Below the pieces are notes generated by a model that worked only from the letters and a program-made list of their open reading frames with translations, was not told the DNA's origin and did not search any database. Positions 20,301 through 40,449 of a DNA stretch of 64,000 nucleotides are shown in pieces. A program made the translations under genes and the position numbers. The DNA comes from a virus. Each line of letters opens with the position of its first letter. Position 1 is the stretch's first letter. Where the stretch lies: positions 32,001-96,000 of IMG/VR virus record IMGVR_UViG_3300022833_000005; one strand, given 5' to 3'.

Positions 20301-23300
20301 ATGATGGTGAATATATAGATATAGTTAATATACCATTTTCAATAATGAGCTTACAATCTGAAGTTCCATCTAAAGGATCGGCATTAGTTACTAGAGGATC
20401 TCAAGTGACAAAGTTGATTACCATGGATTACATGGATAATGGAGTTCCTTCTGATTTCTTTTCTGGTAAAGAAATTAGTGCTAGATATAAAGCTTGGCAT
20501 AAATTAACTGAGAAAGATAAAAAACAAAGATCTCCTTTATATAAAGAGATAGTTCACAATCAAGAATTATTAGTAGAATTAACCAATGAAGGATTTAGCA
20601 CAATGCTTGTCCGTCTAGGTATTATTGAAAAAGATGGAGAGTATATTGTAGAAGATTTTTCAGAAGCTACTAAAACATTACGTGATGAATTATTTAAAAG
20701 AGAAATTAATGATAACATAAGTGACGCACTAACTGGATTTTTAGATGGTAAGTCTGTATTAGAAGCTACTCCAGCGTATCAACAAATTAAAAATATACTA
20801 TATTCAATTGTAGATAAACAAATTGTTTCTCCAAAAATATCAGGAGGATTAAAAGTACAAATACCTTCTGCACTACTTGAATCAACTCGTACAGAAGAAA
20901 CTACAATTAATGGGAAGAAAGGTTACACATCTGATGTTCTTAAATTTTATGAGGATAAAGATGGAGAAAGGGTAATGGAGATAATGGTTGGACGATGGTT
21001 TAAAAGCCCAAAGTCTGATGCTGAATTATTAGAATATTTTAATAATACAAAAGAAGGTCAAAAAATATTATCTGGATTAGCTTTCCGTATACCAACACAA
21101 AAACAAAATTCTATTGATGCAATTAGAATTAAACAATTTTTACCAGAGGAGTTTGGTGATAATGTTGTTGTTCCTGCTGGAATAGTTGCTAAGGTGGGAT
21201 CAGATTTTGATATTGATAAATTATCTATTTACTTAAAGAATGTCTTTATGAATAAAGGTGATTTAAAACTTGTACCATTCTTTGGGTTTGGTCAACAAGC
21301 TAAAGATAAATTTGCTGCTATATTTGATCAAGGAGGTTTATTTACTAAAGAACAAAAACGTCAATTAGATTCTCTTGGTGCATTGAAAGCTTTTGAAGTG
21401 GAAGGATTGTTTGATACAGAAGAAGGAGAAACTTTTAAAGATTTACTTGGCCAGATGGGTATAGTTGATCAAGAAGACACACTGGTTACTTTTGTAAATG
21501 AGATGTCTGAAATAGGAGTAAAGGATGCAGTGGTAAATAGATTATATAAACAATCTTTAGAGAATGAATTTATTCAATCATCTGAGAATTTAGTAACTCA
21601 TCCATCAAACTTTCAGAGATTAATTACACCTAATTCTGCGGAGCAACTAAAAGCTCTTGGTAAATTTATTGCTGAAAAAACTACAGGTGGTACTTTTGAT
21701 TATACTGATGTGTCAAACATGTTAGATAGAAGGTTCATGGCTAGGCTTAGACATTCATTTGTTATAGGTAAACAAGCAATTGGTATTGCTGCAGTAAATC
21801 AAACTAATCATTCTTTAAATCAAAGATCTGCTGTATATGTAGATAAAGATAGAATGTCTAATGTTTCCATAGAAGATGCTGCATGGTTAACGGTAGGTAA
21901 TGGTGATGTTAATTTTGAAAAATTTAATACAATTAATATAGATGGAAGAAACCTTCCGTCATTATCAGGTGTAACTAATTCAGATGGTCAATTGATATCT
22001 GATATACTTGGTCAATTTATTGATGGTTATGTAGATATATCTAAAGGTCCTTGGATTATGGAACTTGGTGCTAAACCAAATGTTGCTGCCACATTTATGT
22101 TTTTAACAAAAATAGGAGTGCCAATTGATACAGTTTCATATTTCATGAATCAACCTATAATTCGTGAATACTTACAAGCAATTGAGAATAAAGGATATTC
22201 TTATTTGTTTATCCAGGATATAGTTAATGAAACATTAGAAGAGTATGATAATAGAGACACATCTGTTATAGAAAGAATCCCTACTAAAACTCTACTTAGA
22301 GGTAATGTAGGTAAAGAATCTTTTACTGCTAAAGAAAAGAACGAACAACAATTTATGTTATTAGAGTTCTTGAAGTATGCTAAAATGGCTAGTCAGTTAT
22401 TTGAAGTTACACAAGGAACAAACTTTGATACATCAAACTTTAATGATCCTTATTTAATATTTAAAAAAGGTGTACAGTTAGAAAGAGCAAAAAATACAAT
22501 AATATCTTCAGTTGATGAAATTCTTGAAAATTCTTTTATAGGAAACTTAGCTGGTAAATTAAACCAGAGTAGAGATGCAATGGCTAATTTTCTAGTATCA
22601 GATAGAGGTACAGTGAGAGAGATTATACAAAAAGTTTTATTACCATACACAGGTGGAAATATAAATAATAAAAAGTTTGTAGGTATAGCAAGAAAAGTAG
22701 TCAATGATTTATTTGATTATGTTGTACAAACAGACCAGAATTTTAATTTAGCTTTACAAAAAATGTTATTGAGTGACAAAGGTGTTGCTTCTCAATTAGT
22801 TACATTTCTTAATCAAGTTAAGAAAAATCCAAGACATCCTTTATTTCACAATCATGTAATTAATTTACTTGAAGTGAGAGCTCCCATTAGAGGTGGTGAT
22901 TCTCTTCCTACTAATATAACTCTTAAGAATACTGACAATAAAGTGTATGATCAAAATAGTATCATATATGGATTTCGTGAATTAAAAGAAGCATTAGAAG
23001 GTCAAAGTGATTTATATGATAATATAGTTACATTATCTATATTACAATCAGGATTAGGTAATTCACCTATATCTTTTACATCACTTCTTCCTTATGAAGA
23101 CTTTGAAAAAATATACAATAAATCCTTGTCTAAGATTGAGAATATTCCTAACTTGAACGAATTTTACACCATTGGTGTATTTGAGAGAAATAATTGGAGT
23201 AAAAGTGATATAGTCCCTAGTACCAGTCTGTTTTCAAAGTTTGATGATAGGAAACAAAAGTTTGTTTATCCTAGTATAGAATACCTTCCGTCAAATGTAA

Positions 23301-24373: not shown

Positions 24374-24374
24374 T

Positions 24375-27300
24375 ATGGCTACATGTCCAAATAAAAATTT
24401 AGAGTCTTGGAAATTACTTATATCATCAAGAGGTGATGATATGGCTTATTACCTATGGGATAAATACGATGGTGAAGTTCCTAATGCTGAGATGACTCCT
24501 GCTATTGTAAAGTTTAATTTAAAAGCATTAGATATTCTTAATTCTGATAAAGCTATACAAGTTTTTGAAAAAGGTAAGAAGAATGGTTGGGATATTAATA
24601 AGATCTTAACAGAGCTTCAAGTACCTAAAGAGCAAAAGCAGATTATACTATCTAAAAATATATCAACTAGAGAGGAAATCATAACATCTCTATTAGCTGA
24701 AAATAGTTTTACTGTTGAGGTTAATGTAGGAGTAGATGGGAATAAGTTTAAAAGTGATGTGTCACCTGAAAATATAAAAAGTATTAGTTTAGAAGAATAC
24801 AATTCTATAAAAGTAGAAGAGATTGAAAACGGAACTAATAAATTAAAACCTGTTAAAAATGGAATGTACTTTAAAAATAAAAAAGGAGATACTTTTTTTG
24901 AACCAACAGTTGTAGAAAATAGTTCTTTTTACCGAGATTTAACAGTTCCAGGTGGTGCTAATTATACAGAAAATGAAATATCTACACCTGCTATTACACC
25001 TAATATTAAAAGTCATGCACAATTTAGTACAGATAATGGTATAGGGTGGTTTAGAAGTGATGAACAACTTAATGATTTAACAGATGAAACTAAATTTAGA
25101 CCTGTTTATTCTTTAGATAAAATAGTTAGTTATATAGAAATTTCAACAGGATTAGAATATAATAAAAATAGTAAAAAACAAAATACACGTAGAATTTTAG
25201 AAGTACAATCTGATTTATTTCAGAAAGGTAGAGATAAAAAATCTTTAGTAAATAGTATGCCAGAAAAAGGAAACTATAAAATGTTTAAATATGGTGATTT
25301 TAATTATTTTACTGTAGATAATAAATTTTTTAAACAACCTTTAGAAGATAAAAATGATCCCTATGGTGTACCTAAAGAAATTGAAATTAATAAATCTGAA
25401 TATGATTTAGTAGTAAACAAAGAAATTAAAGAAAACAATTTTCTTCAACTACTAAACAAAAAAGGTAATTGGGTAAACTTCTTTATACAATCTATAGTAC
25501 AAGATAGTGTTAAAAAAGGTTATGAGAAAGTATTATTTCCTACAGGTGAAACTGCTGCTAAGGTGGAAGGGCATCAAACTTTAGTTGAAGATATTGCTAA
25601 ATGGGATAAAATTATAAATAAAGATTACAAAACTTGGAAATTAGAAGCTATAGATAATAATTTAGATGAAATTAACGAAAATGTTTGGAAAGGTAATATT
25701 ATATATGCTAAAAATAAAAAAGAAGAATTAAAAACACAAGGTATAGAAAAACTTAAACCTATTGAAGCTTTTTATACCAATACAGTTACTAATATACTTA
25801 ATAAGTTATATGATGTAAATGAAATAACTGATGAGCATGGTAACACTTGGAATGAAGTGACATTAGATCAAAGTTCTGTACAAGGGCAAAATATCTTATT
25901 ACAAAAAGAAAACCAATCTTCAAATAAAACTAAAGCATCTCAAGAAATTTTAAGTAAAGTTAAATTAATTATTAAGAGAATGGGAATAGATATTCAAACA
26001 ATGATTGAATATTCTAAAAATAATCCTAATGTTGATGTAACAAATGTTAATGGTTTAGCTGATTTAATTAATGGTATCATTGCTATATCTGAAGGTAAAG
26101 AAGACATTGCTCTTACAGAAGAGATGGTTCATATTGCTACAGCAATAATAGAGCAGAAAAATCCAAAATTGATTACAGAAATGATATCTAAAGTGGATAG
26201 GTTTAAAGTGTATAAAGAAACCTTTGAACAATATAAAGACATAGCTGCATATCAATTACCTAATGGTAAGCCAAACATTCGTAAAATAAAAAAAGAAGCT
26301 GTAGATAAACTTATAGCTGATCTTATTATTAATGATGGTCAATCTTTTTCAGAACTTACAGAAGAAGAAAACAGATCTATCATAAGAAGAATGTGGGATG
26401 CAATTACAGATTGGTTTAGAGGACAACATAAAGCTAGTAATATAGATTTATTTCAAGAAAGTGCTACTAGAATTATACTAGGTAATTTTGAAGGGAATGT
26501 ATTAGATTTAACTAGTAAAGAAGTTTACTATCAAGCTACAGATGCTCAGAAAAAATTACAACAAAAAATAATAGAGACCAGAGAAAGCTTAAGAAAAATA
26601 GAATCTAAAGAACCTATCAATCCTTTATTAATGGATGAAGAAGGTGCTACTAGTTACTATGAAGTGTTAGTTGATGGTGAATATCAAAGAGTTACTAAGA
26701 GGGTAACTGATAGAGTTAAAGCTTGGTACACACAAAGGTTTGGAAAAAATAAAGATTGGACTGCTCAAGAAAAAAGAGATAATGAAGTTAAACGACAATT
26801 AGGAGTTGATTTTCATAATTATTTTGAGGAGATACATGATAGATTTTTCAATACTGATGGTACAAGAAGAGAAAACTTTGGCCCACGTCCTAATATTCAA
26901 GATGCTACTAAAGATGCAGTGTATACTAAACTAGAAAAGTATTATGTAGATTTAATTTCTCAATTTTCTAGAGATGGAAAAAATCCATTAGTGTTTTCTG
27001 AAGTGATGGTGTATGATCCTAAACTTAAAGAGGCAGGTACAATTGATCTTCTTATCGTAGATCAAGATGGTACATCTCATATATATGATTGGAAGTTTAT
27101 GAGTGTTGCCCAGGGTGCTGAAGATGTTGCTTGGTATAAACAAGGAGCATATAATGTACAACTTGGTAGATACAAAGACATATTAAGATCAGCTTATGGT
27201 GTAAAACAAATAGGAAAGAATAGAGCTGTTCCTATTATAATGGATTTACAAAGAGAAAATCCAAAAGACTTAAAAACTAATTTAAAAATTAAAGGAATTA

Positions 27301-30300
27301 AAATTGGTTCTGTAAACCCTAAAGAGATTCAAGATCTTAAACTTGTTCCAGTATCAGAAGAATCAGAATCTACAGGAATTAAAAAATTAGATGAGTTACT
27401 AGTAAAACTAAATGGTGTATATAAACAAATTACTAAAGATAAACCAATCACTGAAGAAGATAAAACTTTTAAAAGAGAGCGTTTAAATATTCTTAAGAAA
27501 GCTATTCGTACAGCACAGAGTACATTAAATATTGCTCCATTAGTTGATGTAATTAGAGTGATGAGGAAAGAAGGAGAGAATATAATTTCTGAATATAAAA
27601 CTACATATGAAGGAAGACCTGCTACATCAGAAGATTTTAACGATGAGCAACTATCAGATTTTGCAGATAATATAAGAGAGTATGGTGATTTAGCTTCAGT
27701 GTTTCAAGATATAAACATTGACTTAAAGGATTTAATTGAAGAAAAAGAAATTCTTGATTTAATACGTGCTGAGGCAGAAGCAATTAAAATATCCCTATAT
27801 GAAATTAAAGAAATAGCTGGGGAATTTGCAGATAAATTTATTGGTGAGAAAAATCTTGTGACTGGTTTAACTAAACCTGAAAAAGTAGTAAAAGGTTTAA
27901 GTTCTTTATTTAGAGGATTATCAGATTTACCACTAGCATCATTAAAACTTTTATACAAACTTGCTAATCGTGCAATGGGCTTTGCTAATGAAGATGCATT
28001 ACAAGAAGTGAATGACCTTCTCGCAATAAGAGATAAACTAAAAGCTAGAGGTGGAGATTTAAGAAAAACTGTACAGCAAATTTATCAAAAATCTAGTGAA
28101 GGTGGATTAGTAAATAAATTAATATACAGATATAAAAGAGAATTCTTCCAAGAGGTTGATGCAAATGCTGAAGAGGGAAGAAGAAGTAGACAGTGGTTAA
28201 AAGATAATGTTGATTTAAAAGGATATTCAATTGAAGCTTCTAAAATATTAAAAGAAAGACTTTCAAAAATTAATAAAACTTATGATGACGGTGAATTAAA
28301 AGAAAAACTTTTATTAGATGAAATGAGAAAGTGGGATGTTTCTCGAAAAGATTTTAATGGTTTTAATAATTATGTAATCAAAAGACACCCTTTATTAAAA
28401 TGGGAATCTACTGAATATATTAATCTTGCAAAAGATCCAGAGTTATTTGAATTATATAATTATATAACTAAGATAAATAAAAAAGCACAGTCTGTAGGAT
28501 ATATAGAAAATAAAGTGCAATCTACATTTTTACCATTTGTAAGAAAGACTATGGCTGAAAGTTTAGCTTGGGATTTTAGTTTAAGTTCAATAAGTAATTT
28601 TAGTGATAACTTATCAGTAAGAACTTCAGATGTAGGATATGGGAATATTAATGAAGTTACTGGAGAGGTAGAAAATAGTATACCAAAATATTACACTTCA
28701 GATTTTACCAAGGGAGAAGATGGTGTAAATGATTATTCTGATGTAAGTGAAGATATATTTAAGAACATGATAATGTACATTAACCATATGGAGAAGTACA
28801 AATACATGTCTGAAATAGAAGGTCAAATAAAATTAGTTCGTTCAATAGAAACATTCAAAGATCATTTACAAACTTCAAAATTTAGTAAGGTTGTAATGGA
28901 TAGTAATGGTAAACCTATTATTGAAAAAGGAAATGCTGACAATGTAAAAATATTTGATTCATTTTTACAAACTGTTATATATGGTCAAAAATACACTGCT
29001 GATAATACAGATATTGCATTAGGTGATGGTTTACTTACTAGTATTAAAAAAGGTATCAATTCTGTTGCAGGTAAAGAAGTATATAAAATTGGGGATAAAC
29101 CTGGAAGTCTATCTCTAATTAAAACTATTGATGCGATGAATAGGGCCTTTCAATTAAAGACTTTAGGATTTGAATTTATATCAGGTGCTGTAAATATATT
29201 TGGTGGTAACATACAAGTTGCTACTCAGGCAGGAAACTACTTTAAAGCAAGAGAGTTTGCTAAAAATGAAATGATGTTAGTTGGTAATCGATTTAAGAAC
29301 GATGATGAACGAAGTATGTTTATTCAACTTATTGATAAATTCATGCCATTAAAAGATGATCCTACTTATGAGAAGATGAAAGCTGCAGGAATGTCTAAAC
29401 TTACTCAGCAAAACTTTTCTGATATGTTATTTGTATTCTTTAGAGAACCTGAACAACATTTAGAAAAAACAATATTCTACACATTGTTAGATAATATGAT
29501 GGTTGAAGATGGTAAGGTTGTTAGTATTAGGGAGTTTGTAAAGAATAAATATAAAGATAGGTATAGTTCTGCAAGTAATTTTAGAGATTCTAAACAATCT
29601 ATAGATGCAGAAATAGAGTCACTTAAAAAAACAAGATCTATAAATTCTACTAAAAAATTAGTAGATGGTGAATTAGTTATACCAGGATTAGATTTAAGTA
29701 ATAGAGAAGAGTTACAGCGTCTAACTAATTTATCAAGAAGTATTTCTAGAAATGCTACAGGTAACATGACAGATTTTGATACTAGTAGAATGAACATGAG
29801 TGTTTGGACTAGATCTATGATGGTGTTTAAAGGTTGGATTCCTAAACTTTTAGATACTAGATTTGGAGAATTTAGAAAGATAGCTGATGATTTCTCTGTA
29901 GAAATTGGAGAAGATGGAATGACTACTGGAGATAAATATGATGTTGGTAGAGTTAGGTTATTTGGATCCTTTTTAAGTTTAAATATTGCTAAAACAGTTA
30001 AAGAAATAAATGATGTACTTATTGTAAATGATTCTGGTATTCTTAAATTAGATGAAATGTATGCACAATATGCACAATCTTATTTTGAAAGAACAGGTGA
30101 TGAGTTACAAATGACTGCAGAAGATTTCAATGACTTAATAAGAAACAATTTACGTAATCAACTTAAAGAACTTGCAATTCTTATGTCATTATTTGGAGCC
30201 ACCTTAGCTTTAGGGTTTATGGAACCAGAAGATGATGAAGATAAAGCACATAAAAACTTTTATAGATTTGCACAAAGAGTTGTAGATAAATTTACAAGTG

Positions 30301-30599
30301 AATTGATGTTCTTCTATAATCCTATAGAAATGAAAAACATCCTAGATGGGGGAATATTCCCTGCCATAGGATTAATAACAGATGTAGGAAGATTTACAGA
30401 TCATTTCTTTATGGAGACTACAGGATTAGATTGGTCAAACACAGATCTTACAGCAGTTGAAGTGAGAAAAAAAGCTCAACCAATAAAGAATTTAATGAAA
30501 ATGCTTCCTGTAAGTAAATCATTAGTTACATATCTTGCTATATCCAACTCTAAATTTGCTAAAGAGTTTGATGTAACTATTCAGAAACAAAGTAGATAA
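24375..30599 (+). CDS. Large cargo/ejection polyprotein with PD-(D/E)xK nuclease-like and degenerate zincin domains
   Basis: Probable start is MATCPN at 24375 (track gives 24342). SEVMVYD..AGTIDLL...IYDWKF..Y..QL..Y; EEMVH. Follows the RNAP gene. Confidence 0.7.
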   Translation: MATCPNKNLESWKLLISSRGDDMAYYLWDKYDGEVPNAEMTPAIVKFNLKALDILNSDKAIQVFEKGKKNGWDINKILTELQVPKEQKQIILSKNISTREEIITSLLAENSFTVEVNVGVDGNKFKSDVSPENIKSISLEEYNSIKVEEIENGTNKLKPVKNGMYFKNKKGDTFFEPTVVENSSFYRDLTVPGGANYTENEISTPAITPNIKSHAQFSTDNGIGWFRSDEQLNDLTDETKFRPVYSLDKIVSYIEISTGLEYNKNSKKQNTRRILEVQSDLFQKGRDKKSLVNSMPEKGNYKMFKYGDFNYFTVDNKFFKQPLEDKNDPYGVPKEIEINKSEYDLVVNKEIKENNFLQLLNKKGNWVNFFIQSIVQDSVKKGYEKVLFPTGETAAKVEGHQTLVEDIAKWDKIINKDYKTWKLEAIDNNLDEINENVWKGNIIYAKNKKEELKTQGIEKLKPIEAFYTNTVTNILNKLYDVNEITDEHGNTWNEVTLDQSSVQGQNILLQKENQSSNKTKASQEILSKVKLIIKRMGIDIQTMIEYSKNNPNVDVTNVNGLADLINGIIAISEGKEDIALTEEMVHIATAIIEQKNPKLITEMISKVDRFKVYKETFEQYKDIAAYQLPNGKPNIRKIKKEAVDKLIADLIINDGQSFSELTEEENRSIIRRMWDAITDWFRGQHKASNIDLFQESATRIILGNFEGNVLDLTSKEVYYQATDAQKKLQQKIIETRESLRKIESKEPINPLLMDEEGATSYYEVLVDGEYQRVTKRVTDRVKAWYTQRFGKNKDWTAQEKRDNEVKRQLGVDFHNYFEEIHDRFFNTDGTRRENFGPRPNIQDATKDAVYTKLEKYYVDLISQFSRDGKNPLVFSEVMVYDPKLKEAGTIDLLIVDQDGTSHIYDWKFMSVAQGAEDVAWYKQGAYNVQLGRYKDILRSAYGVKQIGKNRAVPIIMDLQRENPKDLKTNLKIKGIKIGSVNPKEIQDLKLVPVSEESESTGIKKLDELLVKLNGVYKQITKDKPITEEDKTFKRERLNILKKAIRTAQSTLNIAPLVDVIRVMRKEGENIISEYKTTYEGRPATSEDFNDEQLSDFADNIREYGDLASVFQDINIDLKDLIEEKEILDLIRAEAEAIKISLYEIKEIAGEFADKFIGEKNLVTGLTKPEKVVKGLSSLFRGLSDLPLASLKLLYKLANRAMGFANEDALQEVNDLLAIRDKLKARGGDLRKTVQQIYQKSSEGGLVNKLIYRYKREFFQEVDANAEEGRRSRQWLKDNVDLKGYSIEASKILKERLSKINKTYDDGELKEKLLLDEMRKWDVSRKDFNGFNNYVIKRHPLLKWESTEYINLAKDPELFELYNYITKINKKAQSVGYIENKVQSTFLPFVRKTMAESLAWDFSLSSISNFSDNLSVRTSDVGYGNINEVTGEVENSIPKYYTSDFTKGEDGVNDYSDVSEDIFKNMIMYINHMEKYKYMSEIEGQIKLVRSIETFKDHLQTSKFSKVVMDSNGKPIIEKGNADNVKIFDSFLQTVIYGQKYTADNTDIALGDGLLTSIKKGINSVAGKEVYKIGDKPGSLSLIKTIDAMNRAFQLKTLGFEFISGAVNIFGGNIQVATQAGNYFKAREFAKNEMMLVGNRFKNDDERSMFIQLIDKFMPLKDDPTYEKMKAAGMSKLTQQNFSDMLFVFFREPEQHLEKTIFYTLLDNMMVEDGKVVSIREFVKNKYKDRYSSASNFRDSKQSIDAEIESLKKTRSINSTKKLVDGELVIPGLDLSNREELQRLTNLSRSISRNATGNMTDFDTSRMNMSVWTRSMMVFKGWIPKLLDTRFGEFRKIADDFSVEIGEDGMTTGDKYDVGRVRLFGSFLSLNIAKTVKEINDVLIVNDSGILKLDEMYAQYAQSYFERTGDELQMTAEDFNDLIRNNLRNQLKELAILMSLFGATLALGFMEPEDDEDKAHKNFYRFAQRVVDKFTSELMFFYNPIEMKNILDGGIFPAIGLITDVGRFTDHFFMETTGLDWSNTDLTAVEVRKKAQPIKNLMKMLPVSKSLVTYLAISNSKFAKEFDVTIQKQSR

Positions 30600-31100: not shown

Positions 31101-34100
31101 ATGAACAAATTAGTTTGTGCAGCAAATCCTTGCCCAATTATACTTAGTAGTGCATGTGTCTTTTACGAAGGCCCTAATTTATTATGTGCTAATATTTTAA
31201 CAAATCAAACTGTTGAAGAAGCTCTTAAGAATATTGATGCTCTCTTGTGTGCTGGTAAAGGTTTAGATGGTTCATCTGGTACATCTGGTACATCTGGTAC
31301 AAGTGGCACAACTGGTACCAGTGGAACGTCTGCTACATCAGGAACATCAGGTACAAGTGGTACAAGCGGAACATCAGGTACAAGTGGTACAACAGGTACA
31401 TCAGGTAGTAGTGGAACATCAGCTACAAGTGGAACATCAGGTACGTCAGGTACTAGTGGTACATCAGGTACATCTGGTACAACAGGTACAAGTGGTACAA
31501 CAGGTACAAGCGGTACTTCTGCTACTAGTGGTACAAGTGGAACAACAGGTACATCAGGTACATCTGGTACAACAGGTACGAGTGGTACAACAGGTACAAG
31601 CGGTACTTCTGCTACTAGTGGTACAAGTGCTACATCTGGCACTAGTGGTAGCTCTGGATATGATGGAGATAAATATAAAACAACATCTACTGATTCATTT
31701 TTATTATGCAATCCAGGATGTTTAACAGTTGATCTAGGATTAGCATTCACTCCTGGTCAGTCTATTGTTGTAGCTCATGATATAAATAATTATCAAGAAT
31801 GTACAATAATAACATACAACTCTGCTAATGGAGAATTATGTTTTACAGAACCAATAACTTGTGTAGGAAGTGGTACATATAGTGAATGGTATATAAATTT
31901 AGATGGATCAACCGGTGGTGATGGGTCTTCTGGTACTAGTGGTACTAGTGGAACAACAGGTACTAGTGGTACGTCTGGTACAAGTGGTACTAGTGGTACA
32001 TCAGGTACAACAGGTACAAGTGGTACAAGTGGTACATCTGGTACAAGTGGTACGACAGGTACATCTGGTACGACAGGTACAAGCGGAACATCTGCTACCA
32101 GTGGAACAACAGGTACAAGTGGTACAACAGGTACAAGTGGTAGTAGTGGCACAACAGGTACAAGTGGTACAAGTAGTACATCAGGTAGCAGTGGTACAGT
32201 TGGTACATCTGGTACATCTGGTACATCAGCTACATCTGGTACAAGTGGTACATCAGGTAGTAGTGGTACAACTGGTACTAGTGGTACAACAGGTACAACA
32301 GGTACATCTGGTACAAGTGGATTAAATGGTTCGTCTGGAGCAGCAATAGCAAATTGGTATGCAAGTTTTTCTGATAGCACTACTCAATCTCTTTCAGCAT
32401 CAAATGTTTCAACAGCAATTACATTTAATACAATAGAATTAAACAATGGAGTTGCCTTAGATTTTAATCAAGAAATAAGATATCCACATGCAGGAATATA
32501 TGAAGTAGGTTATTCTTTACAACTAAAGCAATCTGGAAGTGAAACTTCGTATTCTAGCGTTGATGTATTTTTAAGAAAAAATGGTAATGACATTATAAGG
32601 AAAGATAGATTAATTGATATTGAACCAGGAGGTAGGGTTAATTTACCTTTTGCTTCATTTATATTGAATTTAGAAGCAAATGATTATTTAGAATTAATGT
32701 TTGCTTCTACTAATCCAAATATTCAAATTTCAGCAGTTGCAAGTTCATCTTCTCCTTATACTAAACCTGCTGCACCTTCAGTTATATTTATTACAAAACA
32801 AATAGGAGTGTCCGTAGGATCAACTTCTGGAATATCAGGTACAACAGGTACAAGTGGTACAAGTGGTACATCTGGTACAAGTGGCACAACTGGTACAAGT
32901 GGCACAACTGGTACATCTGGTACAAGTGGTACAAGTGGTACAAGTGGTACTTCAGGACTTCTTGGATCCGCAGCAGTTCCTTTAGTTATTACTGGTACTA
33001 ATATTTCTATCAATCAATCTAGCTCAATTGCTAATGGTTTTTTAAGCTCAACAGATTGGAACAATTTTAATAATAAAGCAAACACAGCTTCTCCTACATT
33101 TACAGGAACAGTTGGCGGTATAACAAAAGAAATGGTAGGACTTGGAAACGTAGACAATTTGCCAAGTCTTTTTATAGAAAACGCAACTGGAGGTAGCCAA
33201 TCAACACAAAGAGTTGGAGCGGGTACTGCAACAGGAAGTCAATCTACTATAAGTGGTGGTGAAAATAATAATTCAAGTGGCGATTATTCAACAGTTGGTG
33301 GTGGTCGTACTAATATTTCGAGTGGTAATTATTCAACAGTTGGTGGTGGTCGTATTAATACTTCGAGTAGTTTTTATTCAACACTTAGCGGTGGTCTTAG
33401 TAATATTTCGAGTGCTAATTATTCAACAGTTGGTGGTGGTCAGACTAGTACTGCGAGTGGTTTTTATTCAACAGTTAGCGGTGGTTATATGAATGTTGCA
33501 AGTAACACTAACTCTACAGTAAGTGGAGGGGTTAGCAATACAGCAAGTGGTGGTTATTCAACAATAAGCGGTGGTAAATCTAATACAGCATCAGCTGGTC
33601 TTTCTTCAATACTAGGTGGTGCCTATAACAACACATCAACATTTGTTAACTCACACATTATAGGTAGTAATATAATAGCATCTGTAGCAAATACTACTTT
33701 CGTTGAAGACTTATCTATTAAGAATATTCCAATTGGCTCAACTTTAGAGGTTGGAGCAAACAATGTCTTGATAGCGGGTTCAGCGGGTGGAGCAAGTCTT
33801 TTTGAAGAAAACGCAACAGGAGGAGTTGGTTCAACACAAAGAGTTGGTTCGGGTACAGCATCAGGTAATACTTCAACAGTTAGTGGTGGAGATACTAACA
33901 TAGCATCAGGTGATAGCTCAACAGTTGGTGGTGGTATAGCGAACACAGCATCAGATAATAAATCTACAGTTGGTGGTGGAAGTAATAATCAAGCTACGGG
34001 TAGTTATTCTACAATTGGTGGTGGTAAGAACAACGCAGCTAGTGCATTCAGTAGTTTTATGGGTACTACTAAGGGTTCTACGGTAAGTGGAGGTGGAAAT

Positions 34101-34646
34101 AATACCGCAGGTGGTGTCGGGGGTAATTCGGGCTATGAAACAATTGGCGGTGGACATCATAATATAGCAAGTGGGGATGTGTCTACCATTAGTGGTGGAG
34201 ATACTAACATAGCATCAGGTGATAGCTCAACAGTTGGTGGTGGTTGGAATAACACAACAAGTACTCGATTTACAGTAATAGCTGGTGGTGGTATAAATAC
34301 TGCAAGTGCTCCTTACGGAGTAGTAAGTGGAGGTAAGGACAATATAGTAAGTGGTAATCATTCTACAATAAGCGGTGGTCGTAATAATACTGCGAGTAGT
34401 TTTTATTCAACAGTTGGTGGTGGTTTTAGTAATATTTCGAGTGCTAATTATTCTTCAATAACGGGTGGAAAATTAAACAACACATCAACATTTGCTAACT
34501 CACACATTATAGGTAGTAATATAACTTCTAACAGAATAAATACTACATTTGTACAGAATTTATCAATTACAACTATTCCAACAGCAAGTGCGGGATTACC
34601 TTCGGGTTCAGTTTGGAGTAACGGAGGGGTTTTAAATATAGTATAA
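31101..34646 (+). CDS. Fibre protein: Gly-Thr-Ser collagen-like stalks, C1q/BclA-like domain, duplicated beta-repeat (STVSGG) tip
   Basis: 1181 aa; three G-X-Y blocks; AITFNT..AGIYEV.YSLQL..LEANDYLEL domain; roughly 13-residue STV(S/G)GGxxNxAS repeats. Confidence 0.75.
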   Translation: MNKLVCAANPCPIILSSACVFYEGPNLLCANILTNQTVEEALKNIDALLCAGKGLDGSSGTSGTSGTSGTTGTSGTSATSGTSGTSGTSGTSGTSGTTGTSGSSGTSATSGTSGTSGTSGTSGTSGTTGTSGTTGTSGTSATSGTSGTTGTSGTSGTTGTSGTTGTSGTSATSGTSATSGTSGSSGYDGDKYKTTSTDSFLLCNPGCLTVDLGLAFTPGQSIVVAHDINNYQECTIITYNSANGELCFTEPITCVGSGTYSEWYINLDGSTGGDGSSGTSGTSGTTGTSGTSGTSGTSGTSGTTGTSGTSGTSGTSGTTGTSGTTGTSGTSATSGTTGTSGTTGTSGSSGTTGTSGTSSTSGSSGTVGTSGTSGTSATSGTSGTSGSSGTTGTSGTTGTTGTSGTSGLNGSSGAAIANWYASFSDSTTQSLSASNVSTAITFNTIELNNGVALDFNQEIRYPHAGIYEVGYSLQLKQSGSETSYSSVDVFLRKNGNDIIRKDRLIDIEPGGRVNLPFASFILNLEANDYLELMFASTNPNIQISAVASSSSPYTKPAAPSVIFITKQIGVSVGSTSGISGTTGTSGTSGTSGTSGTTGTSGTTGTSGTSGTSGTSGTSGLLGSAAVPLVITGTNISINQSSSIANGFLSSTDWNNFNNKANTASPTFTGTVGGITKEMVGLGNVDNLPSLFIENATGGSQSTQRVGAGTATGSQSTISGGENNNSSGDYSTVGGGRTNISSGNYSTVGGGRINTSSSFYSTLSGGLSNISSANYSTVGGGQTSTASGFYSTVSGGYMNVASNTNSTVSGGVSNTASGGYSTISGGKSNTASAGLSSILGGAYNNTSTFVNSHIIGSNIIASVANTTFVEDLSIKNIPIGSTLEVGANNVLIAGSAGGASLFEENATGGVGSTQRVGSGTASGNTSTVSGGDTNIASGDSSTVGGGIANTASDNKSTVGGGSNNQATGSYSTIGGGKNNAASAFSSFMGTTKGSTVSGGGNNTAGGVGGNSGYETIGGGHHNIASGDVSTISGGDTNIASGDSSTVGGGWNNTTSTRFTVIAGGGINTASAPYGVVSGGKDNIVSGNHSTISGGRNNTASSFYSTVGGGFSNISSANYSSITGGKLNNTSTFANSHIIGSNITSNRINTTFVQNLSITTIPTASAGLPSGSVWSNGGVLNIV
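31269..31657 (+). repeat. 9-bp tandem coding repeat (GGT ACA TCT/AGT; Gly-Thr-Ser), block 1, about 43 units
   Basis: Direct reading; synonymous variation between units. Confidence 0.95.
31924..32340 (+). repeat. Gly-Thr-Ser 9-bp repeat, block 2, about 46 units
   Basis: Direct reading. Confidence 0.95.
32818..32957 (+). repeat. Gly-Thr-Ser 9-bp repeat, block 3, about 15 units
   Basis: Direct reading. Confidence 0.9.
33880..34244 (+). repeat. Exact 56-bp direct repeat (33880-33935 and 34189-34244) within the fibre tip repeats
   Basis: ttagtggtggagatactaacatagcatcaggtgatagctcaacagttggtggtggt occurs twice. Confidence 0.9.
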
Positions 34647-34671: not shown

Positions 34672-34986
34672 ATGGAAAACAATTTTACAGTTCATATTTT
34701 TGGGTACGGAGAAACTCAATATATAACAAAAGACGTTAATTTTAAAACATTAACAACAGATTTAACAAAGGTTCAGCCTTTAATTGATGCAATTTGGGCA
34801 GAAAAACCCGAAGACGTAACGGGCGGAGATGAATATCACGCAGTAAACATATTTAATTACAACAACAAAAATTGGCAAGGAAAAGGAAAAGAAAATGCTT
34901 CTTTTTATATTAGAGAAAATGATAACTTAGTGGATTTAATTGATGCTTTAATTACAGAGATTAAATACTTAGTTCCAAGTAAATAA
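34672..34986 (+). CDS. Hypothetical protein, possibly a fibre chaperone or accessory protein
   Basis: 104-aa acidic ORF directly after the fibre gene; function inferred from position only. Confidence 0.4.
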   Translation: MENNFTVHIFGYGETQYITKDVNFKTLTTDLTKVQPLIDAIWAEKPEDVTGGDEYHAVNIFNYNNKNWQGKGKENASFYIRENDNLVDLIDALITEIKYLVPSK

Positions 34987-35005: not shown

Positions 35006-35051
35006 AAGAGCGATAATATAGTTAATATTTATCGCTTTTACTATATATTTG
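35006..35051 (+). promoter_or_regulatory. Inverted repeat (possible terminator) followed by -7 box TATATTTG
   Basis: aagagcgataa...ttatcgctttt hairpin, then TATATTTG at 35044-35051 before the sulfotransferase gene. Confidence 0.55.
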
Positions 35052-35067
35052 TTAAAAACAAGAAACA

Positions 35068-35886
35068 ATGAATAAAAAAATCTTTTACAATTCTTCTTTG
35101 CCAAGGGCGGGTTCGACTTTAATATCTAATATTATTGCTCAAAACCCTAACTTTTATTGCACTCCAACTTCGGGTGTTTCTGATTATCTTTTAGGCAATA
35201 GAGCGACTTTTATTAATTCCCAACCTATTAAGGCACAAAATAAAGAAAATATGGAAAAATCATTCTTTAATTATGCTAAATTTGGTATTCAAGGGTATTT
35301 TAGTGAATTAACTGACAAGCAGTTAATACTTGACAAAAGTAGAGATTGGGCGATTAATTATAGGTTGTTAGATGAAATCTATGCAAATCCTAAAATTATT
35401 TGTATGGTTAGAGATGTTAGGGCAATCTATTCTTCTATGGAGAAAAACTTTAGAAAAAATCCTCACAAAGAAAATCATATACAAAATGTATCACAGTTAG
35501 TTGGAACTACTTTAGACAAAAGAGTTGATATTTGGGCAGATGGTTTACCCGTAGGTGTTGCAATGGATAGGTTAAAAGATATTTTTCAACAAGGGCTAGA
35601 TAAACATATTTTATTTATTCGCTATGAAGATTTAATGTCAAACCCAAAAGAAACAATGAATAGGGTGTATGACTATTTTCTTATTGATAGATTTGAACAT
35701 TCATTTGATAAAATAGAACAATTAACACAAGAAGATGATGGCGTTCACGGAATATATGGCGACCATAAATTAAGGCAAAAATTTAATATGTTACCAAATG
35801 ATTTTGAAGAAATTTTAGGAATAGAATTATCTGAAAAAATTAAAAATACTTATCAGTGGTTTTTTAATAAATTCTACACGCTATGA
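35068..35886 (+). CDS. PAPS-dependent sulfotransferase
   Basis: 5'-PSB loop SLPRAGSTL, 3'-PB MVRD....YSS, RYEDL. Confidence 0.88.
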   Translation: MNKKIFYNSSLPRAGSTLISNIIAQNPNFYCTPTSGVSDYLLGNRATFINSQPIKAQNKENMEKSFFNYAKFGIQGYFSELTDKQLILDKSRDWAINYRLLDEIYANPKIICMVRDVRAIYSSMEKNFRKNPHKENHIQNVSQLVGTTLDKRVDIWADGLPVGVAMDRLKDIFQQGLDKHILFIRYEDLMSNPKETMNRVYDYFLIDRFEHSFDKIEQLTQEDDGVHGIYGDHKLRQKFNMLPNDFEEILGIELSEKIKNTYQWFFNKFYTL

Positions 35887-36332
35887 TATATTGGTTCACA
35901 GGGCAACCATCCCACGGAAAAACAGTTTTAGCAAATTTGTTAAAAGATATATTTAAGGACAAAAAAGTGTTTCACGTTGACGGAGATGATTTAAGAGCCT
36001 TAACTTTGAATAAGGACTATTCCAAACAAGGTAGGTTAGATAATGTAAGAGGTGCGCAAAAAATAGCCCATTATCTACACAACGAAGGTTGTACGGTGGT
36101 GGTTTCATTAGTTTCTCCTTACAGAGAGCAAAGAGAACAGTTAAAGAGTGTTTTAGGGGAAAACATTATTGAAATATTTATACACACAACAGAAGCAAGA
36201 GAAAGAGATTGTTATAGGGTTGAAGACTATGAAAAACCGTTAGAAAACTTTATTGATATTGATACGACTTTTGATACACCCGAACAATCACTTAAAAAAA
36301 TAATAGAAAAATGTCAGATAGAAAATATTTAG
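35883..36332 (+). CDS. cysC: Adenylylsulfate (APS) kinase-like protein
   Basis: WFTGQPSHGKT P-loop, VDGDDLR, SLVSPY...R, YEKP. Confidence 0.82.
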   Translation: MIYWFTGQPSHGKTVLANLLKDIFKDKKVFHVDGDDLRALTLNKDYSKQGRLDNVRGAQKIAHYLHNEGCTVVVSLVSPYREQREQLKSVLGENIIEIFIHTTEARERDCYRVEDYEKPLENFIDIDTTFDTPEQSLKKIIEKCQIENI

Positions 36333-36715
36333 TCCAATCCGCAACTCAGTCTTCATTTAGTGAAGTAAAATTCTCTATGTATATTGGAAGATGGCAACCT
36401 TTTCACACAGGTCATAGATGGTTAATCGACCAAAGATTAGACGAGGGAAAAAATATCTTAATTTGTATTAGAGATATAGCACCCGATGAAAAGAATCCTT
36501 GGACAGCAGAAGAGGTTACATTGAACTTAAATAAAGTATTAAAGGATTTAATTGAAGAGGGTCGTGTTAAAATTATAACTATTCCCGACATAGAATCTAT
36601 TAATATTGGTAGGGGTGTTGGATATGATATTATAGAACACTTACCACCTAATGAAATTAAAGAAGTATCAGCTACTAAAATTAGAAATCAAATGAAAAAA
36701 GATGGTAAATTATAA
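36311..36715 (+). CDS. HxGH nucleotidyltransferase (cytidylyltransferase fold); candidate minimal ATP sulfurylase
   Basis: IGRWQPFHTGH and SATKIR motifs; overlaps the cysC-like gene. Confidence 0.75.
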   Translation: MSDRKYLVQSATQSSFSEVKFSMYIGRWQPFHTGHRWLIDQRLDEGKNILICIRDIAPDEKNPWTAEEVTLNLNKVLKDLIEEGRVKIITIPDIESINIGRGVGYDIIEHLPPNEIKEVSATKIRNQMKKDGKL

Positions 36716-36911
36716 AAGGCATTTAGGCAAAACTATTTCTTGGAGAATTATAGGCACTTTAGATACTATTATTTTATCAGGATTAATAACGGGAGATTTT
36801 ATGATTGGCTTATCTATTGGAGGTGTAGAAGTCTTTACAAAAATGATATTATACTTTTTCCACGAAAGAGCTTGGTATAAATACTCTAAATTTGGATTAG
36901 ATAAAAAATAA
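36702..36911 (+). CDS. DUF2061-like small membrane protein
   Basis: R.L.KTISWR..GTLDT...K..LY.FHER.W pattern; this family is often next to cysC in Bacteroidota. Confidence 0.75.
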   Translation: MVNYKRHLGKTISWRIIGTLDTIILSGLITGDFMIGLSIGGVEVFTKMILYFFHERAWYKYSKFGLDKK

Positions 36912-36946: not shown

Positions 36947-39900
36947 TCAAAATCTAAACCATTTTTCTGAAATTAATAAATTAATTTTTTCTATTACTTG
37001 AACTGATTTAATACTCCTATGGCATTCAAAATGTCTAGGAGTATTTTTATGTTCAGGGCACCAATTCCAATCTCCCTTATCGAATGTATGTTCAGTTTTA
37101 TTCCAACAACTGTTACATACAGATAAATCTTTTACTCTATAGCATTTAAATTCATGACTTTCTTCAGTGAAGTTTGATATCATAATAACTTCTTTATCTA
37201 AGGCCCAAGCTAACCAACTCAATCCTGAAGACAATCCTATAAAGAATTCACTTTGTGTGATCCATTCTATAGTGCTTTCTAATGATTTATTCTGAAGAGG
37301 TTCACAATTATCAAAAGGATTATCTTCTAATGAAACATTCTTAATAATATAGCCTTCTTTGTGCAAGTAATTAATTACATCTTGCCATCCTTCTCTGGTC
37401 CAATATTTACATCCTGCTGTACTATTTGTAGCTATTGTAACTAGTTTATAGTGTGCTTTATTTCCTGATTTATATATTTTTGGTTTTATTTCTACATAAC
37501 TCAATCCTAATATATTTGTAGCTGTTTTTTGTAATGGTATTGTATTTGGTAATTCAGGTTCTTTATTAGTATTATAGAACCATCCTATTTTATACATTGC
37601 ATATAAATTAGGTGCAACCTCTCCAGGTTTAATAAATTCTAATTCAGGATATTCATTTTCAAATAAGAAATTTTTATAAGTGCTAACAATCATCTTACAT
37701 TTATGCTTTTTACGAAACTCTTCAACATAGGGTATCCATGCAATTGTATCTCCTAAAGAAGAGCTATCAAAAGCTATGTAAACACGTTCATTTTCTAAAT
37801 TAAATTCTTTAGTATATACAACCTTTCCATCTTCTGTCTTTATTATTGTTTTCCAGGCAGTATAATATTCTCTATCAAGTCTTATCCAAGAATTAACACC
37901 TATTGTGTTATTATATATAAGTTTTTCACCATCATACATTTCAACAGTAAATTTTTTATTAGATGTACCTTTTATTTCTAAATACGGTTTACCTACAAAA
38001 TGTTGTATAACATAAAAGTCTTCTTTAATTTTATTTTGCATCACATCAATATTTAATACTCTGTTATATAAACTTTTATGATTGCCTCCAAATGTAATAT
38101 TTGTATTATTACTAGGAACTTCATAGACATCTTTACTATCTAATGCTTTTTTTAATTGATCATCTATGTTTGATAATCCAACATTTTCAATTGCATGTAT
38201 GTACTTTGTAAACATATTTCCATACTGAGGTAAGTTGCGTGCAATTATTGGAAGATTATAAGATATAGCTTCTCTCAACACTAGAGGATTGCATTCCCAA
38301 GTGCTATTAAACATAAATACATCTGCAGCTAACATAAATAAATGTGTATCTGATCTTTCTCCCCATATGTGTACATTAGAAGGTACATCTTTCATAATTG
38401 GTTCCCAATATTCACTAAAGTTTACTGCTTGATTACCTACAAAATGAAAATCTACATTTGGAAAGCTTCTTGCTAGTTCTACACCTTCTCCCTGATTTTT
38501 TCCTTTAGTCCACAGTCCTATATTTACTACATGTTTTCTATTATTATCAAAACCTAATTCATATTTTGCTTCAACTTTTGATTTTAGATTATTTACAACA
38601 GGTTCTATTGGAAATTCAATTACGTCTTTGTAAGAAGGTGTATCTTTAAATGTTTTTAAATGATAAGAAGTGCAAAAAGCATAAGCTTCTGGATGATATT
38701 TTTTTTCTGTATCTGGAGAAAAAGATATGTTATGACATGTTTCTATAATTTTCCATGTTCTATCGTTTGCATACAATAAGTTAAGTACTTCTGCTGATCC
38801 ATTTCCTAAGTGTTCAGACATTTCATCTATGTGTACAATATCAATTTTGTTATTTCTTATAATATCAATGAGTTCTGTTTTATCTTCTCCTAATGTATAG
38901 ATGTTTTTTACTATTTCTCTTATTTGATTTTTCTGTACAACATACTCGTCACTGTAATTAGCCCACTCTACTACATAAATATTAAATCCAACTAATGATT
39001 TTATTCTTCTAAGTAAGAATTCAGGCATACCACCTGTAGATAAATGTGGAGCAATGAATAAAACTTTTTTTGAAAGTTGGTTTATTGTGTCTTGCATTAT
39101 ACTAATGTCTTTTTCTCCATGAAAAGCTAATAGATGTTCTTCTTTTGCAGGTGTGGCAACCCATTCTGATATATGATTTACCTCACCCGTAAATTTAAAA
39201 CTACTTACATCTACTTTACCCTTATAGTTTATATACATTAGAGGAAGTCCTATGTGGATATTATGTTTCCACAATAACACATTCATTATAGTTTCTTCGT
39301 GATAAGGGGCATACAATTGTGGGTTTTTCACTATAGCTGGATGACTGCACATCCAAGACCATTCATCAATAAAATTACGAGAATTCTGACCAGCTACAAA
39401 GTAACCACTTTGTCTATACTTATTTCTAACTGATTGATCTACATTAAAAAGTTTACATGCAGCATGTTCTAAACTTTCATGTAAATCATCTCTAGTTTCT
39501 ACTCCACCACGACCATTAATAAATAAATAATCATATACACCTTCTACAAAGTATGGATGTGTAGCTTCATTAGGTAGATAATCAAATATAGTATCTATAT
39601 ATTTAGTTACTACAGTGTCTGAATCTATATAAGCTATTGTCAAAGCATGCTTATCTAAAGCATCTGCAACAATTAAAGGTCTTTGTATTAGTAATTTATA
39701 AATCTGAGAGTTATTTCTATCTAAATAGTTATTTTTTTCTATGTGTACACCTTCTAAATTCCATTCAATTGTTTTGTATGCACCTTTTATTTTTATATCA
39801 GAGTTTATCATATACACTATTACAGGTATATTGCTAACATTATTGATACTTTTTACAGCCATTGTTACTATTTCACTATAAGATGCATTTGCATATAATA

Positions 39901-40423
39901 TGTATGATTTTTCCAATTTCATATGTATATACGTATAATACCCATAATACTCGTTAGAGAAAATACATTTAAGTTTTGGATAACGTTCTGTCATTACATC
40001 TGGTGTAAGATCAAGTTGATGGTGAGTTTCGTGTATATTCCCTTCATGCTCTCCCTGCTCCATTTCATAAGGAATAGCAACTAAACAGTCTTTACCTAAT
40101 TCAATAATTTTATCAATTAATTCTATAGCTTGATCTTTATGTAAATGTTCTAAAACATCTCCTAGAATAATAAAATCATAGTCTACTATAGAGAACTCAA
40201 GTATGTCTTTACAATATACATTATCATACTTTTTGATTAACCCATATTTATAGATGTAAGGACTATATATCTCCACTGCATCTATATTATAGCTTTCTGA
40301 TTCTAATAAATCTGCGTAAGTTCCTATACCAGGACCTACATCTAATAGTCTTTTATGAGTTGGGACATTGTCTTGAAACCACTGTTTTACTTCAGTTTTA
40401 AATAAATAAAAGCTAATAGGCAT
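36947..40423 (-). CDS. Multidomain enzyme: SAM methyltransferase + GT-A glycosyltransferase + GT-B (GT4-like) + TibC/Aah-like protein O-glycosyltransferase
   Basis: LDVGPGIG; YIDSD; HLSTGGMP..GKNQ..D.FMFNS.WECNPLVLREA; SSSLGDTIAW..FIGLSSGLSWLAW..CNSCWN..WCP..FEC. Start is probably MPISF at 40423, because the track's TTG lies inside the promoter box. Confidence 0.8.
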   Translation of the reverse strand: MPISFYLFKTEVKQWFQDNVPTHKRLLDVGPGIGTYADLLESESYNIDAVEIYSPYIYKYGLIKKYDNVYCKDILEFSIVDYDFIILGDVLEHLHKDQAIELIDKIIELGKDCLVAIPYEMEQGEHEGNIHETHHQLDLTPDVMTERYPKLKCIFSNEYYGYYTYIHMKLEKSYILYANASYSEIVTMAVKSINNVSNIPVIVYMINSDIKIKGAYKTIEWNLEGVHIEKNNYLDRNNSQIYKLLIQRPLIVADALDKHALTIAYIDSDTVVTKYIDTIFDYLPNEATHPYFVEGVYDYLFINGRGGVETRDDLHESLEHAACKLFNVDQSVRNKYRQSGYFVAGQNSRNFIDEWSWMCSHPAIVKNPQLYAPYHEETIMNVLLWKHNIHIGLPLMYINYKGKVDVSSFKFTGEVNHISEWVATPAKEEHLLAFHGEKDISIMQDTINQLSKKVLFIAPHLSTGGMPEFLLRRIKSLVGFNIYVVEWANYSDEYVVQKNQIREIVKNIYTLGEDKTELIDIIRNNKIDIVHIDEMSEHLGNGSAEVLNLLYANDRTWKIIETCHNISFSPDTEKKYHPEAYAFCTSYHLKTFKDTPSYKDVIEFPIEPVVNNLKSKVEAKYELGFDNNRKHVVNIGLWTKGKNQGEGVELARSFPNVDFHFVGNQAVNFSEYWEPIMKDVPSNVHIWGERSDTHLFMLAADVFMFNSTWECNPLVLREAISYNLPIIARNLPQYGNMFTKYIHAIENVGLSNIDDQLKKALDSKDVYEVPSNNTNITFGGNHKSLYNRVLNIDVMQNKIKEDFYVIQHFVGKPYLEIKGTSNKKFTVEMYDGEKLIYNNTIGVNSWIRLDREYYTAWKTIIKTEDGKVVYTKEFNLENERVYIAFDSSSLGDTIAWIPYVEEFRKKHKCKMIVSTYKNFLFENEYPELEFIKPGEVAPNLYAMYKIGWFYNTNKEPELPNTIPLQKTATNILGLSYVEIKPKIYKSGNKAHYKLVTIATNSTAGCKYWTREGWQDVINYLHKEGYIIKNVSLEDNPFDNCEPLQNKSLESTIEWITQSEFFIGLSSGLSWLAWALDKEVIMISNFTEESHEFKCYRVKDLSVCNSCWNKTEHTFDKGDWNWCPEHKNTPRHFECHRSIKSVQVIEKINLLISEKWFRF

Positions 40424-40441
40424 AATCTTTGATTTTAAATA

Positions 40442-40449
40442 CAAATGTA
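40442..40449 (-). promoter_or_regulatory. -7 box TACATTTG for the multidomain glycosyltransferase
   Basis: Reverse complement of caaatgta, about 20 nt before the ATG at 40423. Confidence 0.6.

Follow-up and report, generated by a model that had tools for sequence, protein, structure and literature searches.

A four-gene phage cassette pairing an APS-kinase-like protein with a 134-aa nucleotidyltransferase, a candidate minimal ATP sulfurylase

Gene content of the cassette

The window analysed here is a 64,000-nucleotide stretch of viral DNA, bases 32001-96000 of a 107,936-bp IMG/VR virus record (IMGVR_UViG_3300022833_000005) with an estimated completeness of 93%. It carries a compact cassette in which genes for a sulfotransferase, a kinase resembling adenosine 5'-phosphosulfate (APS) kinase, a 134-aa nucleotidyltransferase with an HxGH motif (hereafter NT) and a small DUF2061 protein follow one another. 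Textbook sulfate activation relies on two known enzyme types, Sat and CysDN. We consider it likely, judging from sequence comparison and gene context, that these four genes constitute a phage-borne module for 3'-phosphoadenosine 5'-phosphosulfate (PAPS) synthesis and sulfation, in which NT would make APS for the kinase. NT is proposed as the APS maker because of its fusion to APS kinase, its gene order, its complementarity with Sat and CysDN across genomes, and its link to DUF2061. No small or non-canonical ATP sulfurylase came up in our literature search.

The original prediction had described four overlapping genes, and this is borne out by the list of open reading frames (ORFs), in which four + strand ORFs overlap by 4, 22 and 14 nt, and by Pfam matches for each product:

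35068..35886, + strand: PAPS-dependent sulfotransferase, 272 aa (PF13469, PF00685, PHROG 27463)
35883..36332, + strand: APS-kinase-like P-loop kinase, 149 aa, of a short 'lid-less' subtype (PF01583)
36311..36715, + strand: HxGH nucleotidyltransferase (NT), 134 aa, candidate minimal ATP sulfurylase (PF01467, motifs, AlphaFold2 model)
36702..36911, + strand: DUF2061 small protein, 69 aa, with two hydrophobic helices (PF09834)

The sulfotransferase is the only one in the whole phage record. It matches PF13469 (Sulfotransfer_3; 2.2e-17, 64.5 bits against a cut-off of 27), PF00685 (1.6e-11, 44.5 bits against a cut-off of 22) and PHROG 27463 (8.5e-42), and its translation contains both PAPS-binding motifs, a PRAGST resembling the 5'-phosphosulfate-binding motif and an RDVRAIYSS resembling the 3'-phosphate-binding motif. 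Its nearest named relatives are weak matches, namely the Nod-factor sulfotransferase NoeE (6.6e-6) and the CurM/OLS sulfotransferases (1.5e-3).

The 149-aa kinase matches PF01583 (APS_kinase) at 7.5e-20 with 71.9 bits against a cut-off of 21.1, and its matches in the PDB include 2gks (4e-13) and 3uie (4e-12). Residues T6, G7, G12, K13, D33, G34, D35, R38, R51, N54 and P79 are invariant with canonical CysC, so that the P-loop, DGDxxR, R51, N54 and the SP motif are common to the short subtype and the canonical enzyme. The N-terminal extension of canonical CysC is missing from the short subtype.

Coupling of NT to APS kinase

The NT family comprises at least 8000 clusters of similar length at 90% identity, and the unfused members that were aligned are mostly 112-140 aa long. 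Longer homologues number ~2000, and most of the 120 listed carry the APS_kinase domain PF01583, with NT-kinase fusions spanning 250-360 aa. Other long forms, of 320 aa, were considered as a clue to function and set aside as uninformative because they are fusions to HNH or NUMOD3 homing endonucleases. Many phage NT genes are preceded by, and called as fused to, such endonucleases (P0149, P0141, P0154, P0194 and P0153), and homing into the NT gene seems to be common.

The survey of gene neighbourhoods proposed with the original prediction found APS kinase beside or fused to NT in viral and cellular loci alike. Of 80 viral loci, 79 have an APS-kinase gene directly upstream of NT. Of 19 cellular loci, 17 have one nearby, mostly immediately upstream, and in 2 of the 17 (L015, L020) kinase and NT are fused. 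The 19 represent Marinimicrobia, several families of Bacteroidota, a gammaproteobacterial metagenome-assembled genome (MAG) and a Saccharibacteria MAG. Of 160 viral and metagenome loci, the 80 metagenome loci being mostly phage-like, 157 contain NT, 147 the kinase and 81 DUF2061. The usual kinase partner is the lid-less short subtype, but NT is also paired with full-length canonical CysC (L004 and L017, 199-206 aa; G056, G057 and G066).

Fused kinase-NT homologues also occur in cultured phages. PHROG 10255 is such a fusion, with members in Xylella phage Salvo (gp32), Stenotrophomonas phage DLP6 (gp227) and Xanthomonas phages Seregon and AhaSv that are 30-37% identical to the window NT. They differ from the window cassette in having no sulfotransferase or DUF2061 gene nearby and in a variant loop, YGRDVGY, and they are annotated as 'kinase', 'adenylylsulfate kinase' or hypothetical. 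The arrangement resembles PAPS synthases of the Sat-CysC type (Aquifex 2gks, human PAPSS1 1x6v and the protein of Marinimicrobia genome G055), in which an APS maker and a kinase are likewise coupled, but NT systems use a module of ~115 aa derived from nicotinamide mononucleotide adenylyltransferase (NMNAT), and their kinase is often lid-less.

DUF2061 as a link to sulfate activation

The 69-aa product of the fourth gene matches PF09834 at 6.6e-22 (78.1 bits against a cut-off of 23.1) over 49 of 52 positions, and DUF2061 follows NT in 35 of the 80 viral loci. Our literature search found nothing functional on this family. In Flavobacteriales, 19 of 121 genomes carry DUF2061, and counting over gene maps places CysD within ~6 kb of it at 17 of the 19 loci and APS kinase at 13; CysN, CysH, CysQ and an Rrf2 regulator are present at many of them (L106-L124). 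In two of these loci DUF2061 is fused N-terminally to canonical CysC (L110, 5350-6204, and L113; PF01583 1e-64, PF09834 3e-22), and BLAST finds a similar fusion in a Marinimicrobia protein (L125). These cys clusters give DUF2061 a first functional context, as a partner of sulfate-activation genes.

A gene order in genome G370, which has no NT, joins the two settings: a lid-less kinase is followed by DUF2061 and CysD, and CysD fills the slot that NT occupies in phages. CysDN and NT thus resemble each other in occupying the same neighbourhood beside CysC and DUF2061, in G370 as in the Flavobacteriales clusters, and they are mutually exclusive in the genomes examined. They differ in that CysDN has an unrelated fold (an ATP pyrophosphatase resembling PAPS reductase plus an EF-Tu-like GTPase) and is driven by GTP, whereas NT has no GTPase partner.

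Complementarity with Sat and CysDN in cellular genomes

Of 276 Marinimicrobia genomes, each at least 85% complete, 11 encode NT. All 11 have an APS kinase within ~0.5 kb of NT and lack both Sat and CysD; among them is G002, which has a chromosome record of ~1 Mb. Nine NT-free Marinimicrobia of similarly small size, taken by neighbouring handle numbers, have no kinase, Sat or CysD. Eight NT-free Marinimicrobia have a strong APS kinase, and six of these encode Sat or CysD, either as a Sat-CysC fusion of 570 aa (G055) or as CysD (G007, G008, G013, G014 and G015). The seventh (G012) has a CysN-CysC fusion cut by the contig end. In the eighth (G010), whose kinase is on a contig of 4.3 kb, Sat, CysD and NT all went undetected; this orphan canonical APS kinase (L022, C49) adjoins a B12-binding radical-SAM enzyme. 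The difference between 0/11 and 6/8 corresponds to a hypergeometric p of ~0.001, uncorrected for shared ancestry.

The combination of kinase and NT without Sat or CysD recurs in six Bacteroidota genomes, and across all 27 NT-bearing genomes tested Sat was found in 2 (G005, G581) and CysD in 0. Only 1 of 301 Flavobacteriales genomes sampled encodes NT. In Marinimicrobia, NT lies in capsule clusters that also encode Sulfotransfer_5, Wzi, Wza, UDP-glucose dehydrogenase and epimerases.

These genomes bear on an alternative in which NT belongs to the PAPS pathway as an accessory of the lid-less kinase while the Sat or CysDN of the host supplies APS. NT might then be an APS- or ATP-binding partner that replaces the lid, a regulator, or an enzyme that handles APS or 3'-phosphoadenosine 5'-phosphate (PAP). 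The usual partner kinase does lack 14 lid residues, fusion and adjacency demonstrate coupling and not the reaction catalysed, and two NT-bearing genomes also possess Sat. Yet the 11 Marinimicrobia and six Bacteroidota genomes pair kinase with NT but have no Sat or CysD to supply APS, NT also accompanies full-length canonical CysC, which needs no substitute lid, and G370 keeps a lid-less kinase beside CysD with no NT at all. Moreover, the catalytic HxGH and SxTxxR residues of NT are all invariant. We regard an accessory role as unlikely.

Descent and fold of NT

NT matches PF01467 (CTP_transf_like) at 1.4e-4, its HxGH motif reading PFHTGH and its second motif SATKIR. Its best sequence matches are the archaeal, NadM-type NMNATs (PRK01153 of NCBIfam, 5e-12; PDB 1ej2, 6e-8). 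The AlphaFold2 model (pLDDT 90.7) is a single Rossmann-like domain for which Foldseek ranks archaeal NMNAT first and phosphopantetheine adenylyltransferase (PPAT) next, with no Sat among the top matches listed. VIA-align gives Z scores of 9.9 for 1f9a (110 residues aligned), 9.6 for PPAT and 9.0 for NadM. For Sat it gives 7.5 with 1v47 (116 of 134 residues, root-mean-square deviation 3.8) and 5.3-6.2 with the yeast, soybean and Allochromatium enzymes.

NadM and archaeal NMNATs (1f9a, 1ej2, 2qjo) are therefore the closest relatives of NT, with 32-35% identity over the N-terminal 75 residues. The two share GRxQPxHxGH (GRWQPFHTGH in NT), an NP motif, the DIE strand, SxTxxR and the fold. The likeness stops partway: the NT family profile aligns to NMNAT only as far as the DIE strand (NMNAT residue 82), the spacing from DIE to SxTxxR is ~49 residues in NMNAT against 25 in NT, and the part of NMNAT that follows DIE is replaced by an invariant GRGVGY loop, leaving NT without ~24 residues. 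In a 61-sequence alignment the invariant positions of NT are G26, R27, Q29, P30, H32, H35, R54, P63, P92, G100, R101, G104, Y105, E109, S120 and R125, and the family motif reads IPDIESxNxGRGVGYDIIEH. Two of these features, R54 and the GRGVGY loop, are specific to the NT family and without counterpart in NMNAT. In distant members (Salvo gp32, DLP6 gp227 and G120) the loop reads YGRDVGY.

The resemblance to Sat (PF01747) lies elsewhere. Both belong to the HxxH/SxTxxR superfamily, both are assigned the reaction of ATP and sulfate to APS and pyrophosphate (in NT as a proposal), and both often adjoin or are fused with APS kinase. Each also has a GR[D/G] loop between HxxH and SxTxxR. In the Sat sequences L104 and L105 it reads LIVGRDHAG, a loop that contacts the sulfate of APS in Sat structures; the NT loop takes up an analogous position and is a possible homologue. 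NT has GRWQP in place of the QTRNP of Sat and, as a single domain of 134 aa, has neither the PUA-like N-terminal domain nor the catalytic domain of ~200 residues of Sat proteins, which are 397-570 aa long. PF01747 (gathering score 24.3 bits) gave no match for the window NT at E<=0.1, and the fused relatives P0149 and P0146 score 18.4 and 17.2 bits, below that threshold. When the NT profile was aligned with two real Sat sequences by hhalign, the HxxH stretch alone aligned, at a probability below 3%. Descent from a cut-down Sat was rejected because hhalign aligned only this HxxH helix, while sequence and fold are both closer to NadM-type NMNAT.

NT is thus, by descent, a shortened NadM-type NMNAT without the C-terminal half and not a truncated Sat. 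The original prediction had called it a stripped-down sulfate adenylyltransferase. The proposed role in making APS gains backing from fusion, gene order, complementarity and DUF2061; the implied ancestry does not hold, NMNAT being closest.

Such descent raises the question of whether NT is simply a small adenylyltransferase for nicotinamide or nicotinic acid mononucleotide, with the adjacent protein acting as a kinase of the nicotinamide-riboside type. By the logic of NadR, which is likewise an NMNAT-kinase fusion, the pair would restore NAD+ in the infected cell, for example to counter defences that deplete NAD. NMNATs are indeed the best matches by sequence and by structure, and many homologues are publicly named 'nicotinamide mononucleotide adenylyltransferase'. 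However, TIGR01527 gives NT 42.3 bits where its equivalog cut-off is 181.2, the match is confined to positions 2-82 of its 167, and the residues missing after DIE are on the acceptor side. The kinase matches APS_kinase and not the NadR kinase family, and NT is accompanied by sulfotransferases, DUF2061 and capsule genes rather than by NAD genes. A canonical NadD is encoded elsewhere in all five NT-bearing Marinimicrobia genomes of ~1 Mb (174-181 bits, cut-off 112), and therefore NT is not their NAD enzyme. We consider a role in NAD synthesis very improbable.

Proposed mechanism, points against it and alternative products

In the proposed pathway, the HxGH/SxTxxR site of NT would move the AMP of ATP to sulfate, with APS and pyrophosphate as products. 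The lid-less kinase, as its family and conserved APS-binding residues suggest, would phosphorylate the 3'-OH of APS to form PAPS, drawing the unfavourable first step forward. The Sulfotransfer_3 enzyme would then pass sulfate to an acceptor, which synteny suggests is most likely a glycan made by the adjacent giant protein, and the sulfated glycan would sit on the phage fibre or the host envelope. DUF2061 may be a small membrane-associated accessory of sulfate activation.

On balance we also favour a broader proposal. NT would be a third, previously overlooked class of ATP sulfurylase and the smallest known, with an NMNAT-derived core of ~115 aa. Joined by the lid-less kinase and DUF2061, it would constitute a portable PAPS synthase, one abundant in marine and freshwater phages. 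Streamlined bacteria such as pelagic Marinimicrobia would have NT as their sole sulfate activator, and the window phage would use it to sulfate a glycan autonomously.

Several observations weigh against reading NT as an APS maker that serves sulfation. The kinase scores 70.7 on TIGR00455, under the equivalog cut-off of 138.7, and the short subtype has no counterpart of the 14-residue lid of CysC (KKARxGEIxxFTGI). The hhalign comparison given above finds no specific similarity of NT to Sat outside the HxxH stretch, and the same fold would be expected of any HxGH transferase. As to complementarity, the presence of Sat beside NT in G005 and G581 means that NT is not strictly exclusive with Sat, many of the cellular genomes are single-amplified genomes or MAGs, whose absences are soft, and the ten NT-bearing Marinimicrobia of small size probably belong to a single clade.

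Phage context adds to these points. In the largest phage group, 53 of the 160 loci, kinase-NT stands beside an N6/N4 DNA methylase, and no sulfotransferase or DUF2061 is recognisable in this group. Its block (the L036-L101 group, for example L172:4623-5477) consists of DUF3310, kinase, NT, N6/N4 methylase, a protein of 360-400 aa, DUF5856 and a peptidoglycan-binding protein; the 359-aa neighbour (c7) has no match in Pfam, PHROGs or Atlas. Salvo gp32 sits among DNA-metabolism genes, and a MazG-like pyrophosphatase and an annotated cysteine dioxygenase lie a few genes away (L206, 11590-19886). Sulfation may not be the sole use of the PAPS from kinase-NT. A further recurrent partner, a gene of ~112 aa resembling HAD/PNKP phosphatases, lies between kinase and NT in ~25 phage loci (such as L046, L074, L136, L155 and L197), follows NT in Marinimicrobia G120, is fused to NT in P0159 and occurs at L023:4439-4798, but is absent from the window. 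Its product could be a PAP 3'-phosphatase analogous to CysQ, or a pyrophosphatase that pulls the sulfurylase reaction forward; its presence leaves room for a product other than PAPS.

Such a product would be another 3'-phospho-adenylylated compound, made much as PPAT and dephospho-CoA kinase act in sequence and used in DNA, nucleotide or glycan modification, with sulfate as just one among several acceptors or not used as one. The methylase loci, the setting of Salvo gp32 and the small phosphatase as a third partner all speak for this possibility, as does a structural Z to PPAT (9.6) that equals that to NMNAT. Against it, the kinase retains DGDxxR, R51 and N54 in common with CysC, canonical CysC is itself a partner of NT, and DUF2061 and sulfotransferases tie the window cassette to sulfate. 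Complementarity with Sat and CysDN would be left unexplained. We judge a product of this kind decidedly unlikely.

If NT does make APS, pathway annotation changes, and genomes scored as unable to activate sulfate, including those of abundant ocean lineages, may make PAPS. There would also be an explanation for the APS-kinase genes that are often listed as orphan auxiliary genes of viruses, and a very compact PAPS-generating module would be available to biotechnology, for example in enzymatic glycan sulfation.

Probable use of PAPS and the surroundings of the cassette

The following features surround the cassette:

31101..34646, + strand: collagen-like fibre, 1181 aa, with G-T-S triplets and YadA/UspA1-like repeats (PF01391, UspA1_rep)
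34672..34986, + strand: conserved 104-aa ORF upstream of the sulfotransferase, at the same place in related loci
35009..35036, + strand: hairpin after the 104-aa ORF, AGCGATAA, a 12-nt loop and TTATCGCT, then TTT (read from sequence)
35044..35051, + strand: TATATTTG, a -7 box of Bacteroidota type (TAnnTTTG), 17 nt ahead of the ATG of the sulfotransferase gene (motif match)
36947..40444, - strand: multi-domain enzyme, 1165 aa, methyltransferase/GT4/GT9-like, convergent to the cassette (PF13489, PF00534, PF01075)

We suggest that the PAPS more likely goes into sulfating a glycan, the candidate acceptor, on the virion or the host envelope than into sulfur assimilation. PF01507, which covers CysH and CysD, and PF01747, which covers Sat, have no match across the whole 107,936-bp record, and sulfation is preferred over assimilation because the phage record has no Sat, CysD or CysH. 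This extends the statement in the original prediction that the window encodes no reductase. A glycan is favoured because CysH is absent and because the block of fibre, cassette and glycosyltransferase is conserved. In full, the block conserved in related phages comprises fibre, 104-aa ORF, sulfotransferase, kinase, NT, DUF2061 and giant glycosyltransferase; the preference for sulfation over assimilation in the original prediction accords with it. The cassette also suggests that phages make sulfated glycans. A recent phage paper (PMC10580990) calls the role of phage sulfotransferases unclear.

The fibre matches PF01391 (Collagen) at 2.3e-34 and UspA1_rep at 3.4e-6, and homologues of its C-terminal part lie upstream of the cassette in 9 related loci. 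The fibre may itself be the setting of sulfation or glycosylation. Its collagen-like arrays are broken by globular parts, the YadA/UspA1-like repeat region is C-terminal, and the repeats give rise to long spurious ORFs on both strands. The original prediction had placed the cassette directly behind the fibre genes; in fact the 104-aa ORF intervenes between fibre and sulfotransferase. This ORF has no family match in profile searches, and its homologues hold the same position in L019, L061, L096, L134 and L186. The 1165-aa enzyme probably builds the glycan. Its homologues flank the cassette in 14 loci, near full-length with 49-54% identity in L061, L186 and L032 and partial in 11 more. In L128 (7585-11310) and L197 (7534-11286) the giant protein after DUF2061 combines GT4, GT9 and a PIG-L de-N-acetylase, a composition that recalls the logic of de-N-acetylation and N-sulfation in heparan biosynthesis.

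A DNA search with the cassette against deposited phages gave no match. A 132-kb contig in a Sediminibacterium MAG (L019) reproduces the window order from fibre to DUF2061 at 46-56% identity, and probably represents a related phage or prophage that was binned into a Bacteroidota genome. This contig and the TAnnTTTG box both hint at a Bacteroidota host for the window phage.

The hairpin at 35009..35036 looks like a terminator in its sequence; the terminator scan did not list it because its loop exceeds 8 nt. The original prediction had placed the cassette under one promoter box. A TAnnTTTG match does exist at 35044-35051, but the window contains no excess of the motif (113 matches, 112.5 expected), only 4 of 41 genes have it in front of them (1.9 expected, p ~0.1), and a sigma-70 scan of the window stayed at chance level. 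A single promoter shared by the four genes is plausible, since the cassette genes overlap.

The window has a G+C content of ~30%, and its phage genes include an rIIB-like gene, ribonucleotide reductase, a virion protein and an Amidase_2 lysin. Upstream of the fibre lie two giant ORFs, 11366-24373 (4335 aa) and 24342-30599 (2085 aa), the second with merely a weak match to PD-(D/E)XK; both are unusually large for a 108-kb phage.

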